Under the pieces are notes generated by a model. It had not been told where the DNA came from and did not search any database. It was given only the letters and a program-made list of their open reading frames with translations. The position numbers and the translations under genes are program-made. Shown here one piece after another: positions 15,054 through 39,809 of a stretch of DNA of 64,000 bases. Every line of letters starts with the position of its first letter. Position 1 is the first letter of the stretch. The stretch comes from Thermoplasmatota archaeon. GTDB lineage: Archaea > Thermoplasmatota > Penumbrarchaeia > Penumbrarchaeales > Penumbrarchaeaceae. The stretch spans positions 25,494-89,493 of the forward strand of contig JAWOCK010000113.1 in the NCBI GenBank assembly GCA_046483845.1, written 5' to 3'.

Positions 15054-16013
15054 ATGGAGGACAAAGAAGAAAAAGAGCACCAACTGGTGTTCGGTCCGGT
15101 ACCGTCCAGGAGATTGGGGTCCAGTCTGGGCATCAACAATATCCCGCCCAAGAACTGCACCTACTCATGCATCTACTGCCAGGTGGGGGCCACAACCAGC
15201 ATGGACCTGCACAGAAGGGAGTTCTTCGAGACCGAGAGGATAGTGAAGGAGGTGGAAGAGAGGCTCGATAGTATCAGGGAGAAGGGTGAGAGGGTTGATT
15301 ACGCCACCTTCGTCCCGGACGGGGAACCGACCCTGGACCGGAACCTTGGAAGGTCCGTAGAAGGTGTTTCGGAACTGAATATCGATACCGCCGTCATCTC
15401 CAACGGCTCCCTTCTGTGGATGGAAGATGTCCGCGAGGAACTTCTCAACGCGGACCTGGTCTCGGTGAAGGTGGATTCGGTGGACCCCGGTCTGTGGAGG
15501 AAGGTGAATCGGCCCAATGCAAGGCTGGACCTGACCAGGATCCTTGACGGGATTGGCAGGTTCGCCGATGTCTTCGAAGGGAGGCTGCTCACCGAGACCA
15601 TGCTGGTCCGGGACGTAAACGACGGTGAAGGGGATCTGTCCCAGGTGGCCGAATTCCTATCGGGTATCGGTCCCGATACCGCCTATATATCAATTCCGAC
15701 ACGTCCGCCCATGGAGAACTGGGTCGAGTCCCCCCGCCACGAGGCCGTGCACAACGCATATTCCATCATGAAGGAGAAAGTGGGTTCCGTGGGAATGCTT
15801 ACCGGCCCCGAGGGCAATTCGTTCCAGATCTACGGGGAGCTGAAGGACGAACTAGGGGGTATCACCTCGGTGCACCCCATCAGGGAATCCTCCATGAATG
15901 AGATCCTGAAGAAGTACGGAGGCTCCATGGAACTGGTGGAAGAAATGGTGGAGGAAGGGGTCATGGAAAGGAAGGTCCTGGAAGGGGAGACCTTCTACAC
16001 CAAGAGCAGATGA
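15054..16013 (+). CDS. Radical SAM protein (COG0731-like)
   Basis: FGPVPSRRLGSSLGIN, CTYSCIYC (CxxxCxxC), DGEPTL. Confidence 0.9.
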   Translation: MEDKEEKEHQLVFGPVPSRRLGSSLGINNIPPKNCTYSCIYCQVGATTSMDLHRREFFETERIVKEVEERLDSIREKGERVDYATFVPDGEPTLDRNLGRSVEGVSELNIDTAVISNGSLLWMEDVREELLNADLVSVKVDSVDPGLWRKVNRPNARLDLTRILDGIGRFADVFEGRLLTETMLVRDVNDGEGDLSQVAEFLSGIGPDTAYISIPTRPPMENWVESPRHEAVHNAYSIMKEKVGSVGMLTGPEGNSFQIYGELKDELGGITSVHPIRESSMNEILKKYGGSMELVEEMVEEGVMERKVLEGETFYTKSR

Positions 16014-16097
16014 GGCATAAAACATATCTCTGCGTTGAATGAGCCGGGGGTTCGGAAGGAGAGCTCCCCGAACAAAAACCGCACATCCTCAGCCGTT

Positions 16098-16235
16098 ATG
16101 GACAATGCAATAGGGTACAAGAAACTAATCGACACCTTTTAACACGAACAGGAAGCCAAGGATAAGAAGATCACAAAGAAGGACATCGAAGAAGCAATAC
16201 TTGAGGCACGATCTGAGGTCTGGTCCGATGAATAG
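16098..16235 (+). pseudogene. Antitoxin-like remnant with internal stop
   Basis: ATG 16098, TAA 16140-16142, then HEQEAKDKKITKKDIEEAILEARSEVWSDE*, which overlaps the start of a PIN fragment. Confidence 0.5.
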
Positions 16236-16341
16236 GATCCTGGTCGATACCAATATACTCATTTCCGCTATTGCATTCGACATAAATGAACTGGATGTTA
16301 TTTTGAAAGGGATAAAGAAAGAAGTTATTATTGAGATCTAG
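16228..16341 (+). pseudogene. Truncated PIN-domain toxin (37 aa)
   Basis: MNRILVDTNILISAIAF is a PIN N-terminal DTN motif; the frame ends where the convergent PIN gene ends. Confidence 0.7.
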
Positions 16342-16756
16342 TCAGATGTCATCTAATATTTTTATCAGATCTCCAGTGGAATACACATCAACTCCCATAA
16401 TGGATTTCAAAACCTTATCATTGGACCAGATACCTGCTTTGATATTCAAAGCCAAAGCTACATATTCAGCATCATCAGGATCTGGAGTTATCTTAATAGC
16501 TCTATCCCTGAAGGTTTTGAAATCGTCATATGGATAAAAAGAGATCCTTCGTTTCAGAATCTCCATGAACCTATCAAAATTCTTTTCTTGGTCGTTTAGA
16601 TTTATCAATAATCTCATCTTCGTGTTTTTCAAATTCTTCAAGAAGAAACTCAGGAGCATACAAATGGAAAATGTCCTTGAACAATAACTCTGCTGTCTTA
16701 TTGTCCTTTATGAGTGCTGCAAAAAGAACATTCGCATCGACTACGAGGTCCATCAC
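16342..16756 (-). pseudogene. PIN-domain (VapC-like) toxin split by a +1 frameshift
   Basis: First half MDLVVDANVLFAAL...KEF*; second half DRFMEIL...PDPDDAEYVALA...IWSND. Removing one T from GAA-TTT-TGA-TAG (16576-16579) restores one frame. Confidence 0.85.
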
Positions 16757-16980
16757 TCCATCTCCGAGTATCGCTTGTGAAGTGATCTGTTGACCTCTTT
16801 ACCAAGTCTGACGGCATCTTCTTCTGTCAGAGTACTATTCTTCTTGTATTCGATCAAGAACTTGAGATCCTCTATCTTCTCTCTGAATGCCTGCCTGGCT
16901 ACTTCAGACCAGTTGATCTCCGGAAATAGATCTATGTCGTTTTTCATCTCTTTTGGGACGGTTATCGTCATATTTACCAT
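16753..16980 (-). CDS. Ribbon-helix-helix-type antitoxin
   Basis: MVNMTITVPKEMK...FPEINWSEVARQA; ATGA overlap with the PIN gene. Confidence 0.82.
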   Translation of the reverse strand: MVNMTITVPKEMKNDIDLFPEINWSEVARQAFREKIEDLKFLIEYKKNSTLTEEDAVRLGKEVNRSLHKRYSEME

Positions 16981-16998
16981 GTGATTACCTAGTATAAC

Positions 16999-17012
16999 AT
17001 GTGTATACACAT
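16999..17012. promoter_or_regulatory. Perfect 14-bp palindrome ATGTGTATACACAT, probable antitoxin autorepression operator
   Basis: Begins 19 nt upstream of the antitoxin ATG; arms extend imperfectly (ATAAC...GTTAT). Confidence 0.55.
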
Positions 17013-17073
17013 AGTTATTCATTTCGGTGTTCAGTTCATTAATTTCCGAAAGGCCCTTTGCTTCCTTGCTGTA

Positions 17074-17403
17074 ATCGACATAGGTAAGTCCTCACGGACT
17101 GTCCCTGTCACACCACCGTGCGTACGGGACCGTACACGGCGGTTCAATATGATTATGCGAAACTACTTCGACCGAGTTCCTTCCGACGGTTTCGGGGGGT
17201 CTTCCACTGTTTCCATGAAAGACTACGAAGACGTCGCCTTATCCAACCATCCAGCTTTGCCAATATGGACGGAGTCTCACAGAAACCGAAATAACCATAC
17301 CGACTCACCTCACGATGATGCCCTTGCGGGTCGCTAATACTTCGCCTCCACCAGGCTGTATAGGGGACTTGCACCCCCAGGATACCAGACATGCCCGGCA
17401 CAC
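17074..17403 (-). mobile_element. Internally deleted group IIC intron (330 nt) with intact ends and a maturase fragment
   Basis: 5' GTGTGCCGGGCATG; domain V GAACCGCCGTGTACGGTCCCGTACGCACGGTGGTG with CGC triad (17111-17145); domain VI ending CCTATGTCGAT; domain X peptide GYFGFCETPSILAKLDGWIRRRLR..WKQWK (17153-17299); upstream hairpin at 17412-17430. Confidence 0.9.
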
Positions 17404-17482
17404 GAGCAATGAAAATTCCAAAGGAATTTTTATGATGTTTGAAAAATCCGGGGAAGGTCCGCTGTTCGAATGAAATGAGAAC

Positions 17483-17680
17483 AGTGGGCCGACCCGATCT
17501 TCCCTTCAGGAAGATTGGGGCCAGTATCAGCTGATATCAGCAGACCCCAGACCTTGTGAAAATCCAATTATGGATGCTTATCTGGTGATTTTCACGGTCC
17601 GGGTCGGATCAGCTATAGAACAAATATTACCCACTCACAAATATAATTTGAATACGATAATGTTAGTGGGCCGACCCGGA
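17483..17680 (-). repeat. Two extra copies of the tRNA-Val 3' end (17665-17680, 16 nt; 17483-17496, 14 nt) with structured spacers
   Basis: + strand AGTGGGCCGACCCG(GA) is identical to 17821-17836. Confidence 0.9.
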
Positions 17681-17822
17681 CCTTCGGCGAAAAATGATCA
17701 AAACAGGCTTTCAACCGTTTTTCGCCTGGTCATCAATGTGACATCAATAACATCGGGTCGGAAGAATATGATGAAAAAACGATTCCCACTTTCTACGATT
17801 ACAGAATAATTAGAATCGAAAG

Positions 17823-17896
17823 TGGGCCGACCCGGATTTGAACCGGGGACCTCCGCCTTGTAAGGGCGACGTCATAACCAGCTAGACCATCGGCCC
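17823..17896 (-). tRNA. tRNA-Val(UAC), CCA not encoded
   Basis: GGGCCGA acceptor stem, anticodon arm TCGCC-CTTACAA-GGCGG, T arm CCCGG-TTCAAAT-CCGGG, discriminator A. Confidence 0.96.
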
Positions 17897-18023
17897 GGTC
17901 TATTATTGGCTCACCCTTCATCGACATTTGACATAAAACCTTTTCCTTGGAGCTGTCCCGATATCAAAGAAAATTACAAAAGCGAATATCCGATACACCC
18001 TATACCAAAGGTGTGTGAGATCA

Positions 18024-36920: not shown

Positions 36921-38645
36921 ATGGAGTACTGGAAGTGCCCTGCCCGTATACCCCTGCTGTTGATTCCAGCGGCAGTCATATTCCTGCTGTTTGTGGTCTC
37001 CTCTGACGGGGGAGCCGTATCCACGGCAGTCATTGATATCGAGCAGGATTCCATCCGGATCGATGTTTCCGGAAGATCCCACGCTGTGGAGAGCGTCGAT
37101 GTAACGGTCAGGTCCACCTCCGCGCGAAATGTCATCCTTGATGTGTCCTACGATCTTGTGGCTCCTCCCACATGGTCAGTGGACGGTCCCGGGAAGCTCT
37201 TCATGGAGCCGCTCTCCAGGAAAAATTTCCAGGTGGACATCATAGTTCCTCCCGGGGAGCTCGCGGAACTCGAAGGAGAGATGACCATATCGGCTTCGGT
37301 GGAAGGGGATCCCGGGATGGATGTGGGCTCGGATTCCGTATCCATACGAATAAAGGAGTTCCGCAGGATCGTTCCCCTTGTGGATGACGATTATATATCG
37401 GACCTTCCCCCGCAGGGGGAGCTCGAACTCAAGATGGAGAACCTGGGCAACGTGGAGACCCGTTTCCTTCTCCTTGAGATGAACGGACCGAATACAATGC
37501 CCGGTGCGGGTGATGGCATGGTACTGGCTCCTGGTGAGATAGGTGCCTTCACCCTTGAATATTCACTTGATGAGACCGCCGGGGAGCAGACAATGGAGCT
37601 TTCCTCCTATCTTTCGGATGGGACCGTTCAGGAGAATTTTCTCTCCCTGAGGTTCATAAGGGACGGGGATCTCTTCCATCTCTTGTTCAGAAATGGCCCT
37701 TTCCTTATCATCTCACCGACCATCGACCCCGATGATGATCGGATATCCGTCTTTTCATTGGATGGTGATCTTGAAAATATCGGTCTCGAGATCGTGGACG
37801 GGCCCCCGGAAGCCTACATTGAGATGGGGGCCGGACCGGACCTCGAGAATCTGGACAGAAAGGAGATCTCCTTCCGGGCCGGGGGTTTTACCGGGGCGGA
37901 GGTCCTGAAGGTCCGTGCCTATGGTTTCAGCAAAGATGGCAGGGTATATTCCAATACCATTTTCGTTACGGTCAGGTCGTCGGGCGGGTCCGGGGCCCCT
38001 TTTATATCCACCCGAGCTGCAGTTGCCGGGGGAAGCACCGTAGCGGCCGTGACACTGACGGCGGGCACGGCAGCCTATCTCTACTCCGCTTCGGAGGTCT
38101 TCCGCTACAAGTGGCTTCTACTTGCCCTCGTTCCTCTTTATTCCATGACCAAAGGGGAGAAAATACTGGACCATTTCTTCCGCGGGCGGCTCTTCGAGCA
38201 CATCAGGGAGAATCCCGGTGTGACGTTCACTGCCTTGAAGGAACATTTCGATGTTAACAACGGGACCCTGACATACCACCTGCACAGGCTCGAGAGGGAG
38301 GAGTTGATAACCTACCGCAATCTCGGCAAGTACAAGATGTTCTACGCTGAGGGTATGAGGATCCGTGGATGCGAGGTGGTGATATCACCCTTGGATAGGG
38401 AGATGCTGGGTATGATCTCGGATAATCCTGGAATGACGACAAAACAGGTGATCACCTCAATGAAGGGGATAAGGTCCCAGCGGACGATCTCAAGGCATAT
38501 CAAACAGCTGGAGAGAAAAGGATTCCTCGTTGTTGAAAGAACCCACGGAGCACGTAGACTGTTCGTCTCCGAGGATATGGAAAGGGTCCTGATGCCGCAT
38601 CGAGGGGTCATGGAGGCAGTGGATGTCATAGGGAGCAGGGGATAA
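36921..38645 (+). CDS. Membrane-tethered regulator: extracellular Ig-like region, TM segment, cytoplasmic tandem winged-helix domains
   Basis: Signal peptide; NLGNVET Ig-like motif; PLYS...LDHFFRGRLFEHIRENPG...NGTLTYHLHRLERE; second wHTH SQRTISRHIKQLE. Confidence 0.78.
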   Translation: MEYWKCPARIPLLLIPAAVIFLLFVVSSDGGAVSTAVIDIEQDSIRIDVSGRSHAVESVDVTVRSTSARNVILDVSYDLVAPPTWSVDGPGKLFMEPLSRKNFQVDIIVPPGELAELEGEMTISASVEGDPGMDVGSDSVSIRIKEFRRIVPLVDDDYISDLPPQGELELKMENLGNVETRFLLLEMNGPNTMPGAGDGMVLAPGEIGAFTLEYSLDETAGEQTMELSSYLSDGTVQENFLSLRFIRDGDLFHLLFRNGPFLIISPTIDPDDDRISVFSLDGDLENIGLEIVDGPPEAYIEMGAGPDLENLDRKEISFRAGGFTGAEVLKVRAYGFSKDGRVYSNTIFVTVRSSGGSGAPFISTRAAVAGGSTVAAVTLTAGTAAYLYSASEVFRYKWLLLALVPLYSMTKGEKILDHFFRGRLFEHIRENPGVTFTALKEHFDVNNGTLTYHLHRLEREELITYRNLGKYKMFYAEGMRIRGCEVVISPLDREMLGMISDNPGMTTKQVITSMKGIRSQRTISRHIKQLERKGFLVVERTHGARRLFVSEDMERVLMPHRGVMEAVDVIGSRG

Positions 38646-38683
38646 AGCCAGGACCAAAACGTTCCATCTGTTTTCATGATAAC

Positions 38684-38691
38684 TTTAAATA
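38684..38691 (+). promoter_or_regulatory. TATA box of tRNA-Asn
   Basis: TTTAAATA about 35-40 nt upstream of the mature 5' end. Confidence 0.55.
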
Positions 38692-38724
38692 ACATTTCAT
38701 TATATTCCCGGCTACCCAAACGAC

Positions 38725-38801
38725 GCCGCAGTAGCTTAGCAGGTTAGAGCGTACGGCTGTTAACCGTAAGGTCGTCGGTTCGAATCCGCCCTGCGGCGCC
38801 A
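38725..38801 (+). tRNA. tRNA-Asn(GUU), CCA encoded
   Basis: GCCGCAG/CTGCGGC acceptor stem, anticodon arm TACGG-CTGTTAA-CCGTA, T loop TTCGAAT, G discriminator. Confidence 0.96.
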
Positions 38802-39090
38802 ATAATTATTTTACCATCAAGCCAGGGCGGTCGAACTTGTTCCTGGATGTTTAAGAAGAGATTATCTTAAAAACTTAACATCCAGGCCAGATAAGAACGG
38901 AGTTCTTATTAAGGCGAATCCGCCCTGCGGCGCCATGTTTCTAATTTTCTTCTCATTAAATGAAATATATGGCCCGGAGGGTGGATTCGAACTTGTTCCT
39001 TGATGGAAAGTACACAATATCCAAAGCTTTTCATCAAGGCCAGCAAAATCTTGAAAAGATTTTGCGAGGCGAATCCGCCCTGCGGCGCCA
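38802..39090 (+). repeat. Two extra exact 21-nt copies of the tRNA-Asn 3' end (38915-38935, 39070-39090) with structured spacers
   Basis: CGAATCCGCCCTGCGGCGCCA is identical to 38781-38801; periods are 134 and 155 nt. Confidence 0.95.
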
Positions 39091-39152
39091 TGCTTCCGAT
39101 TATCAGCTACCGGATCCGATCATCCTATCTTGAGGATGCCGGGTCCCGGACA

Positions 39153-39809
39153 TCATGATACGGCTTTCTTTATCAGCTCGACTATCATCTTCTCAGGGGC
39201 CGCGCCCTCCTGATGGTGCTCATCGTTGACGACGGTCCTCGGGACCCCCATCACCCTGTACTTCTGCGCCATCTCGGGGAACTCGGATGCCTCTATCATG
39301 TCGGAGGTGACCTTGTCCGATACCATTGCCATATGATGTGCCAGTACCACCGAGCGTGGACAGTAAGGACACGTAGGTGTCACAAAGACCTGAATGTGCA
39401 CATCCTTCTCGAGACCCTTAAGGAATTCCTTGCCCTCATCGGACAGTCCGTCCTCCCCGGAAGATACGGAAAGGATAGAATCCAGAAGTGAGGTGAACTC
39501 GTATCCTGCGGGAATACCGAAGAACCTTACCCCCGTGTACTTGTGGTCGTCCTTGGTCCCCTTCATGATCAGGACCGCCGGAGCCTTGTCTACCCCATAC
39601 TTCTGTGATACCTCGTCCATCTTCTCCAGGTCCACCTCCTCGAAGGTAAGCTTGTCGGTCAATTCGGATATCTCATTCACGATCGCAAGGGTCTCGTTGC
39701 AGGAGAGACATCCCTTCTCGGACGTGAACACGAGTACATGCACCGGGTCCGTCATCGCTCCTACTGCCACTTTCACCTGTTCTCTGGTCTCATTGTTCAT
39801 TAGCTCCAT
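39153..39809 (-). CDS. Protein disulfide oxidoreductase (two thioredoxin folds)
   Basis: CLSC and CPYC sites, FFGIPAGYEFTSL, MGVPRTVVN; RBS AGGTGA at 39815-39820. Confidence 0.92.
   Translation of the reverse strand: MELMNNETREQVKVAVGAMTDPVHVLVFTSEKGCLSCNETLAIVNEISELTDKLTFEEVDLEKMDEVSQKYGVDKAPAVLIMKGTKDDHKYTGVRFFGIPAGYEFTSLLDSILSVSSGEDGLSDEGKEFLKGLEKDVHIQVFVTPTCPYCPRSVVLAHHMAMVSDKVTSDMIEASEFPEMAQKYRVMGVPRTVVNDEHHQEGAAPEKMIVELIKKAVS

Follow-up and report, generated by a model that had tools for sequence, protein, structure and literature searches.

What is the nature of the two units that directly follow the tRNA-Asn(GTT) gene in a 64,000-nucleotide (nt) stretch of a Thermoplasmatota archaeon genome (assembly GCA_046483845.1, contig JAWOCK010000113.1, positions 25,494 to 89,493; the whole stretch is called the window here)? 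Each unit runs from a linker through a segment complementary to the tRNA end (IC) and two internal elements, stem-loop B and hairpin C, to a direct copy (DC) of the last 16-21 nt of the tRNA. We found that these elements fold into a three-way junction, and that this architecture is retained by compensatory change across genomes while the sequence diverges. The tRNA-Asn units are not a local accident, since the tRNA-Val gene of the same window has analogous units. Our tentative reading, to which we would give somewhat less than an even chance, is that the units are putative non-coding tRNA-trailer RNA modules similar to the RtT repeats of Escherichia coli, in arrays that may be resized by recombination between tRNA ends.

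Results

Two units repeat the end of tRNA-Asn

The 21-nt end of tRNA-Asn, CGAATCCGCCCTGCGGCGCCA (38781-38801), has exactly three copies in the window, beginning at 38781, 38915 and 39070 and hence 134 and 155 nt apart. In shuffled versions of the window the 21-mer was found 0.01 times on average, and none of 100 shuffles reached three matches. All elements that an earlier sequence-only reading had listed for Asn units 1 and 2 (W_U1 and W_U2) were recovered in place by direct reading and inverted-repeat search (Table 1), including the identity of IC2 as the reverse complement of the last 24 nt of tRNA-Asn with one gap and two mismatches. In unit 1, CAGGGCGGTCGAAC at 38823-38836 is followed by TTGTT, and the arms of stem B (38842-38851 and 38877-38886) are 100% complementary and are followed by CCA. 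The stem B arms of unit 2, CCTTGATGGAAAG and CTTTTCATCAAGG, are 92% complementary, the exception being a G.T pair, and a repeat search found TCGAACTTGTTCCTKGATG and ATCMAGGCCAG to be common to both units. The description of the locus as a tRNA-Asn array was accurate as to the two units but not as to tRNAs, of which there is only one: ARAGORN and the Rfam tRNA model (at E ≤ 10 over the Asn array) called 38725-38801 and 17822-17896 and nothing on the units, and no cloverleaf was detected by either that would make the units tRNA genes or pseudogenes.

The units are conserved in related genomes

Relatives were found by scanning genomes with the exact 21-mer, which leaves out genomes with a different tRNA-Asn end, and the locus sequences obtained carry at most 2 kb of flank and hence cover the surroundings of tRNA-Asn only. 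The scan matched 11 loci (L001-L011), none of them from the genome of the window itself. Five loci belong to metagenome-assembled genomes (MAGs) of Thermoplasmatota, all five with tRNA-Asn. The other six are bacterial (L001, L003, L004, L006, L009 and L010) and were set aside, as each held a single 21-mer and no tRNA; such single bacterial matches exceed an estimate based on uniform composition and may reflect a conserved coding motif in GC-rich genomes.

All five Thermoplasmatota relatives have an IC 18-35 nt past tRNA-Asn, complementary to tRNA positions 53-72 and recovered in a fuzzy search with at most two substitutions per 15 nt, where background matches in the window start at three to four. 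A full unit with IC, B, C and DC was present in four of the five, as a single copy in L002, L005 and L007 and together with a lone IC after the unit in L011, and L008 carries a lone IC only. Including the window with its two units, this amounts to six full Asn units and two lone ICs in six genomes, and a bare tRNA-Asn with no IC downstream was found in none of the six. DC is invariant in all six units apart from L002, where a 21-nt insert (AAATCGTTTTCATTCACGCCC, at 1841-1861 on the minus strand) interrupts it after CCGCCC and repeats CGCCC, and L011, where the final CA is missing. The L011 unit also exceeds the others by about 90 nt and contains additional internal sequence, and in L005 the repeat extends 25 nt past the tRNA, so that 46 nt are identical.

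The surroundings of the units are syntenic, with a winged helix-turn-helix (wHTH) gene, tRNA-Asn, the units and a convergent thioredoxin-like gene in this order, and the units thus sit in a conserved host intergenic region without mobile-element genes. Protein identity to the window's copies is 37-50% for wHTH and 64-76% for the thioredoxin-like protein, and the tRNA-Asn of the relatives differs from that of the window at 0-4 positions. The interiors of the units are at the identity of shuffles (about 0.5), except for Asn unit 2 and the L007 unit, which share 0.76 (shuffle mean 0.50, maximum 0.62). By reading, unit 1 resembles the L011 unit, with which it has linker and stem B in common, and unit 2 resembles the L007 unit, whose stem-loop B is nearly identical and whose hairpin C shows compensated changes relative to that of unit 2. 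Unit 1 is missing from L007, with the boundary exactly at the repeat, and most of unit 2 is missing from L011. As L007 also has the thioredoxin-like protein closest to the window's, the similarity of units follows the relatedness of hosts, and the units therefore appear to descend vertically with the host. The start of the linker is repeated after the last DC in L002, L005, L007 and the window.

Two of the five MAGs have a contig end no more than about 160 nt from the array: the L005 array lies at 164-393 of a locus whose contig ends at position 1, and the L007 tRNA lies at 120 of one whose contig starts at position 1. Here the assembly could have broken because the site is repeated or polymorphic.

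A three-way junction is retained by compensatory change

The three-way junction was both the minimum free energy (MFE) and the centroid structure of the two window units on the plus strand, with -43.9 kcal/mol (z = -3.9) for unit 1 and -64.4 kcal/mol (z = -8.95) for unit 2. The remaining Asn units gave z-scores of -5.2, -7.8, -6.3 and -6.7, and for each of the six units none of 200 shuffles was as stable. A helix between IC and DC, of up to 17-21 bp and extending to tRNA position 1, closes the MFE structure of all six units as well as the RNAalifold consensus. The junction proposed by the sequence-only reading is thus favoured in folding; its proposal that each unit ends in a 3' CCA is correct for the Asn units only.

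Covariation was assessed with five of the six Asn units, from four genomes, the longer L011 unit being left out because of its extra internal sequence. RNAalifold gave 44 pairs, with 91.2% of cells paired. Double-sided changes were seen in 19 of the 44 pairs, compared with 7.1 ± 2.0 in shuffles, none of 500 of which reached 19, and controls with slid partners gave two to six covarying pairs. Covariation was located in stems B and C. The G-C to T-A compensatory change reported earlier in the first stem is real, and the hairpins are kept by compensation in related genomes. Reading of the L011 unit, which has a stem B orthologous to that of unit 1, added two further double compensations between these two. 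The closing helix cannot covary on the DC side because DC is invariant. The window, L007 and L002 have kept the length of the B loop (16 nt) and its ends. We read the covariation with the caution that certain hairpins may have been exchanged wholesale rather than changed stepwise.

The strand with the sense of the tRNA was more stable than the antisense strand in all five Asn units tested, with RNA as well as with DNA parameters, and in both Val units described below. The alignment contained 12 G.U cells and 5 A.C cells, several of these being inherited together. The strand bias and the excess of G.U point to a fold of the sense strand, whether as RNA or as single-stranded DNA.

Table 1. Positions of the tRNA genes, the repeat units and their parts in the window
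Feature	Position	Strand	Sequence or content	Basis
tRNA-Asn(GTT)	38725-38801	+	CCA encoded	ARAGORN; Rfam tRNA 68.4 bits
Asn unit 1	38802-38935	+	linker 1, IC1, B, C, DC1	
Linker 1	38802-38820	+	A/T-rich, ATAATTATTTTACCATCAA; resembles L011 linker	direct reading
IC1	38821-38836	+	GCCAGGGCGGTCGAAC; pairs with 38915-38932	reading and fold
Unit 1 stem-loop B	38842-38886	+	10-bp stem CCTGGATGTT/AACATCCAGG	inverted-repeat search
Unit 1 hairpin C	38891-38909	+	ATAAGAAC-gga-GTTCTTAT	reading and fold
DC1	38915-38935	+	21/21 identical to tRNA-Asn 3' end	repeat search
Asn unit 2	38936-39090	+	linker 2, IC2, B, C, DC2	
Linker 2	38936-38969	+	T/A-rich; start resembles sequence after DC2 (11/14)	direct-repeat search
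IC2	38970-38992	+	TGGCCCGGAGGGTGGATTCGAAC	reading, inverted-repeat and fuzzy searches
Unit 2 stem-loop B	38998-39039	+	13-bp stem, 16-nt G-free loop	inverted-repeat search, RNAalifold
Unit 2 hairpin C	39043-39065	+	GCAAAATCTT-gaa-AAGATTTTGC	inverted-repeat search
DC2	39070-39090	+	21/21 identical to tRNA-Asn 3' end	repeat search
tRNA-Val(TAC)	17822-17896	-	CCA not encoded	ARAGORN; Rfam
Val unit 1	17665-17821	-	AGTGGG (17785-17790) and TCCGACCCGA (17753-17762), two hairpins, DC	
Val unit 2	17483-17664	-	AGTGGG (17630-17635) and TCCGACCCGGACC (17596-17608), internal hairpins, DC	

The tRNA-Val gene carries units of its own

The window holds two tRNA genes only, for Asn and Val, and both carry units built on their own 3' end. 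A repeat search located the copies of the tRNA-Val end at 17821, 17665 and 17483. The DC of Val unit 1 (17665-17680) is 16/16 identical to the end of tRNA-Val, and that of unit 2 (17483-17497) is the same end minus one base. The complementary segments have the form AGTGGG...TCCGACCCGGA and are split by an insert of 21-23 nt. The repeats consist of ...GGCCCA followed after the discriminator by the genomic trailer bases CT, not by CCA, and must therefore have been copied from the gene or a precursor and not from mature tRNA.

Just past the last Val unit, 22 nt at 17450-17471 are 77% complementary to the variable region, the 5' strand of the T stem and the T-loop of tRNA-Val. The T-loop word of this segment is TTCGAA, as in tRNA-Asn, and not TTCAAA; the segment may be an inverted fragment of another tRNA, or may have arisen by chance.

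The Val units lie in a stretch of low GC content (0.434 at 16001-18000, compared with 0.49-0.58 elsewhere in the window). About 90 nt beyond the last unit, and directly after a small AAAATTCC/GGAATTTT hairpin, an open reading frame (ORF) of 82 amino acids (17153-17401, minus strand) has a match to GIIM, the maturase-specific domain of group II introns (profile 37-76 of 80, E = 1.6e-09, at about 17174-17296), and no reverse transcriptase part. The sequence that follows this ORF resembles intron domain V/VI by eye, and there was no Rfam group II match at E ≤ 1; the fragment is probably a decayed group II intron. A PIN_2 toxin gene is spread over two overlapping minus-strand ORFs (16574-16756, matching profile 1-55, and 16342-16659, matching profile 37-122), which implies a frameshift. 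It is preceded by an ORF of 89 amino acids without a Pfam match (16753-17022, minus strand), which could encode an antitoxin. With the Val units, the intron remnant and the PIN pair within it, the low-GC stretch has the look of a short region of DNA that is foreign or decaying.

The units resemble E. coli RtT in layout and not in family

Repeats that follow E. coli tyrT and end in the tRNA-Tyr terminus have been known since the late 1970s, and of known systems they come nearest to the archaeal units. Entries for tyrT, tyrV, tpr and the small RNA rttR are present in the E. coli K-12 annotation, and we found four copies of the repeat directly after tyrT and tyrV, with a spacing of 178 bp after tyrV. 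Each copy ends in AATCCTTCCCCCACCACCA, which by reading is the 3' end of tRNA-Tyr (19 nt), and contains a 22-nt segment that is 86% complementary to the T-arm/acceptor region of the tRNA. The RtT model RF00391 scored 133-137 bits on the four copies (gathering score 45 bits), and in its consensus the upstream segment pairs with the copy of the tRNA end around internal hairpins while the CCA tail stays unpaired. According to published reports, rttR is encoded by one of the tyrT repeat units, and rtT RNA takes part in the processing of the tyrT transcript, from which it is reported to be released, and may modulate the stringent response; the purpose of the repeats is described as unsettled.

The archaeal and the E. 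coli repeats both form tandem units that follow a tRNA gene directly on its 3' side and end in the 3' terminus of that tRNA. The copied end includes CCA in both (19 nt in E. coli, 21 nt in the archaeal Asn units) and starts inside the T-loop. Both folds are multibranched and closed by an upstream complementary segment with the copied tRNA end, and leave a CCA tail unpaired in the RtT consensus and in most archaeal Asn units. The units of both measure 130-178 nt, and in both the last unit is followed by a repeat of the trailer's start. They differ in that the archaeal units have an archaeal rather than an enterobacterial host, occur at two different tRNA genes within one 64-kb window, lack a conserved ORF like tpr and have a longer closing helix, which reaches tRNA position 1. 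RF00391 did not match the window at its gathering threshold, 38600-39200 at E ≤ 10 or 16900-17950 at E ≤ 1. Judged by sequence, the archaeal units are analogues of RtT and not members of the RtT family.

The complementary segment fits a tRNA-end mimic

The Asn IC is equivalent to the 5' strand of the acceptor stem fused to that of the T stem, and can thus be read as the strand of a tRNA minihelix as well as an inverted duplication. Six of the eight Asn ICs begin with GCC... at tRNA position 1, and their complementarity ends at position 72, leaving G73-CCA unpaired. Like a tRNA minihelix, the closing helix stacks seven acceptor pairs on five T-stem pairs and has a free G73-CCA in most Asn units. 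The units depart from the minihelix in that two large hairpins replace the T-loop and the acceptor part is often mismatched, and the Val units have no free end.

The inverted copy had also been likened to a tRNA primer-binding site, and we consider it very improbable that IC serves as such a site of a retroelement, with tRNA-Asn or tRNA-Val annealing to it and priming reverse transcription. Its complementarity to 19-24 nt in the tRNA's 3' part would suit this role, as would the group II intron maturase remnant near the Val array. The complement of CCA, however, is approached only by the ICs of Asn unit 2 and L007, and with G73-CCA unpaired in the other six the tRNA's 3' end would not be extendable as a primer. 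In the Val repeat, genomic trailer bases stand in place of CCA. DC masks IC in every fold, and apart from the maturase fragment near Val the window ORFs scanned contained no reverse transcriptase domain, so that none lies near the Asn locus. The Asn IC thus fits a mimic of the tRNA end and speaks against a primer-binding site.

Discussion

What process would leave such units behind tRNA genes? We rank an RtT-like RNA module first because a fold of the sense strand seems to be under selection, the units have long resided at a host locus without mobile genes, and there is a studied precedent. The units would be transcribed in the direction of the tRNA, either by read-through of weak T-runs or from an A/T box within the linker. 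With the free G73-CCA that most Asn units have, the closing helix would imitate the acceptor/T-arm minihelix, so that the enzymes that process tRNA ends could excise each unit as a stable RNA of about 115-125 nt, as is reported for RtT RNA. Pairing of IC with DC may keep the spare tRNA ends from mispairing with the real tRNA, and copy number could shift through recombination between the repeated tRNA ends. We speculate that the released putative RNA acts as a mimic of an uncharged tRNA end.

Several observations weigh against the RNA-module reading. T-runs of 4-7 lie between tRNA-Asn and the first unit, and archaeal termination at such runs should end transcription in large part. A search for promoters gave none that was convincing, and the type-1 linkers measure only 18-19 nt. 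In its acceptor part the closing helix reaches only 79% pairing and does not covary. The Val ICs are split by an insert of about 22 nt and extend their pairing to the discriminator and trailer, and therefore do not mimic a free tRNA end. An E. coli RtT unit was not more stable than its shuffles (z = -0.92, compared with -3.9 to -8.95 for the archaeal folds), and the lack of a match to RF00391 described above belongs here as well. The 46-nt repeat of L005 with its 25 nt of trailer looks like the result of DNA recombination rather than of RNA function. Paired changes could also arise without selection, by templated mutation from one arm of a DNA palindrome to the other.

The main rival account, possible but on balance unlikely, is that the units are miniature relics of site-specific integration at the tRNA gene, or non-autonomous mini-elements. 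Each unit would then be an attachment region and the tRNA ends sites of the attL/attR type, with tandem accretion and with excision shrinking the arrays, as in cis-mobilizable elements (CIMEs) of bacteria. Direct repeats of a tRNA gene's 3' portion are what integration usually leaves. The first repeated base lies within the T-loop or at its end (Asn C56, Val T60), which is reported as a known sublocation for integrases (Williams 2002). Tandem direct repeats of the 3' part of a tRNA, with inserts bounded by them and a content that varies among relatives, are common to such remnants and the archaeal units, and unit content does vary among the orthologous loci. Integration leaves a full tRNA copy and a partial one at the two ends of an element, as stated in one source (PMC9897764). 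The extended repeat of L005 and the position of the Val array, in a low-GC stretch beside a maturase remnant and a split PIN toxin gene, also suit this origin. The archaeal inserts, however, are only 113-134 nt long and gene-free, and a Pfam scan of 47 window ORFs found no integrase, transposase or other mobile-element gene. In the relatives the array is flanked by the host wHTH and thioredoxin-like genes, no further, more degenerate copies of the tRNA end lie downstream, and neither 50,697 phage nor 72,556 plasmid records contained a match to the units. The similarity of Asn unit 2 to the L007 unit points to vertical descent. Double-stranded att sites bound by protein predict neither covarying stems nor a strand bias, and a circle of 134-155 bp would be a poor substrate for recombination. 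The archaeal units add a covarying fold and an inverted copy, neither of which our literature searches turned up for attL/attR or CIME remnants, and to our knowledge such remnants carry no conserved covarying fold or inverted repeat copy. Both accounts may hold in sequence, with an origin by recombination followed by retention as RNA.

We find it improbable that the units are a neutral by-product of tandem duplication and unequal crossing-over at the tRNA 3' end, with the hairpins kept by palindrome-templated mutation. Such mutation is an established mechanism, and the arrays do hold a whole number of units plus a fraction, as seen in the linker starts after the last DC of L005, L002, L007 and the window. 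Against a neutral origin, the architecture is kept although the interiors are at shuffle level and the neighbouring proteins are 37-76% identical, DC is constant in the six units but for the two changes noted in L002 and L011, the strand bias was seen in five of five units, and the B loop is kept at 16 nt, with its ends, in three genomes. More doubtful still is that the units are folded single-stranded DNA sites, comparable to integron attC or CTX-phage attP, that is, tRNA-directed mini-cassettes in which the IC/DC helix imitates the duplex end of a tRNA gene, and a recombinase that reads structure and is encoded elsewhere recombines it into that gene. Hairpins are enclosed by inverted arms about 77 nt apart, the stems covary, and the array is laid out as would be expected from an inserted circle; the greater stability of one strand with DNA parameters in all five units is compatible with such sites and not specific to them. 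On the other side, the window ORFs scanned contain no recombinase gene, and descent looks vertical. If true, single-stranded mini-cassettes would explain why the units are tailored to each tRNA's own 3' end.

Literature searches returned no description of such units in archaea. A family unrelated to RtT but identical to it in layout is now seen in an archaeal phylum, at two tRNA genes of one genome and with covariation, which suggests that the arrangement of tRNA-end repeats is a recurrent solution and not an enterobacterial oddity. The units would offer a second, independent system in which to study the action and processing of tRNA-end mimics and their origin by duplication of, or integration at, tRNA genes. 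For annotation they are a warning that short repeats of a tRNA end are not always prophage scars.

Further searches and minor observations

Apart from tRNA, no Rfam family matched the whole window at gathering thresholds or the two arrays by E-value; weak matches to miRNA, snaR-A and C/D box families (9-21 bits) were far under the cut-offs and were dismissed. A covariance model (R1) was built from the five aligned units and run with filters off over the window and the five relatives' loci (80,070 bases). It found the five units used to train it (81-127 bits), the unit of L011 at 22 bits (E = 0.015), antisense shadows and partial matches to tRNA, and no further copy in the window. An ORF search returned ORFs within units but none common to them, and Asn unit 1 and the L005 unit have none of at least 25 amino acids.

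Other assignments were rejected by reading. The unit ends beside the repeats are not mutual inverted repeats, as a casposon or a miniature inverted-repeat transposable element would have. Stem B of some units contains words resembling UGAUGA, but IC is not followed by a box D, which excluded a C/D-box guide, and a missing ACA tail excluded an H/ACA guide. The 21-nt insert of the L002 DC resembles the insert of the first Val IC (AATCGTTTT..CAT), but the motif is not recurrent, and the resemblance was taken as chance. Decayed lone ICs suspected by eye after the last DC of the window, L005 and L007 were not recovered at up to four substitutions, a setting at which shuffled windows already give 10-27 matches, and the only lone ICs that stand are those of L008 and L011.

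In L002 the interval from the last unit to the thioredoxin-like gene contains a small CxxC...CxxC ORF at about 1550-1690 on the minus strand (MAGNIQCPNCGS...), preceded, by reading, by an A/T-rich box. This ORF is absent from the window, and the content just downstream of the array therefore varies between genomes.

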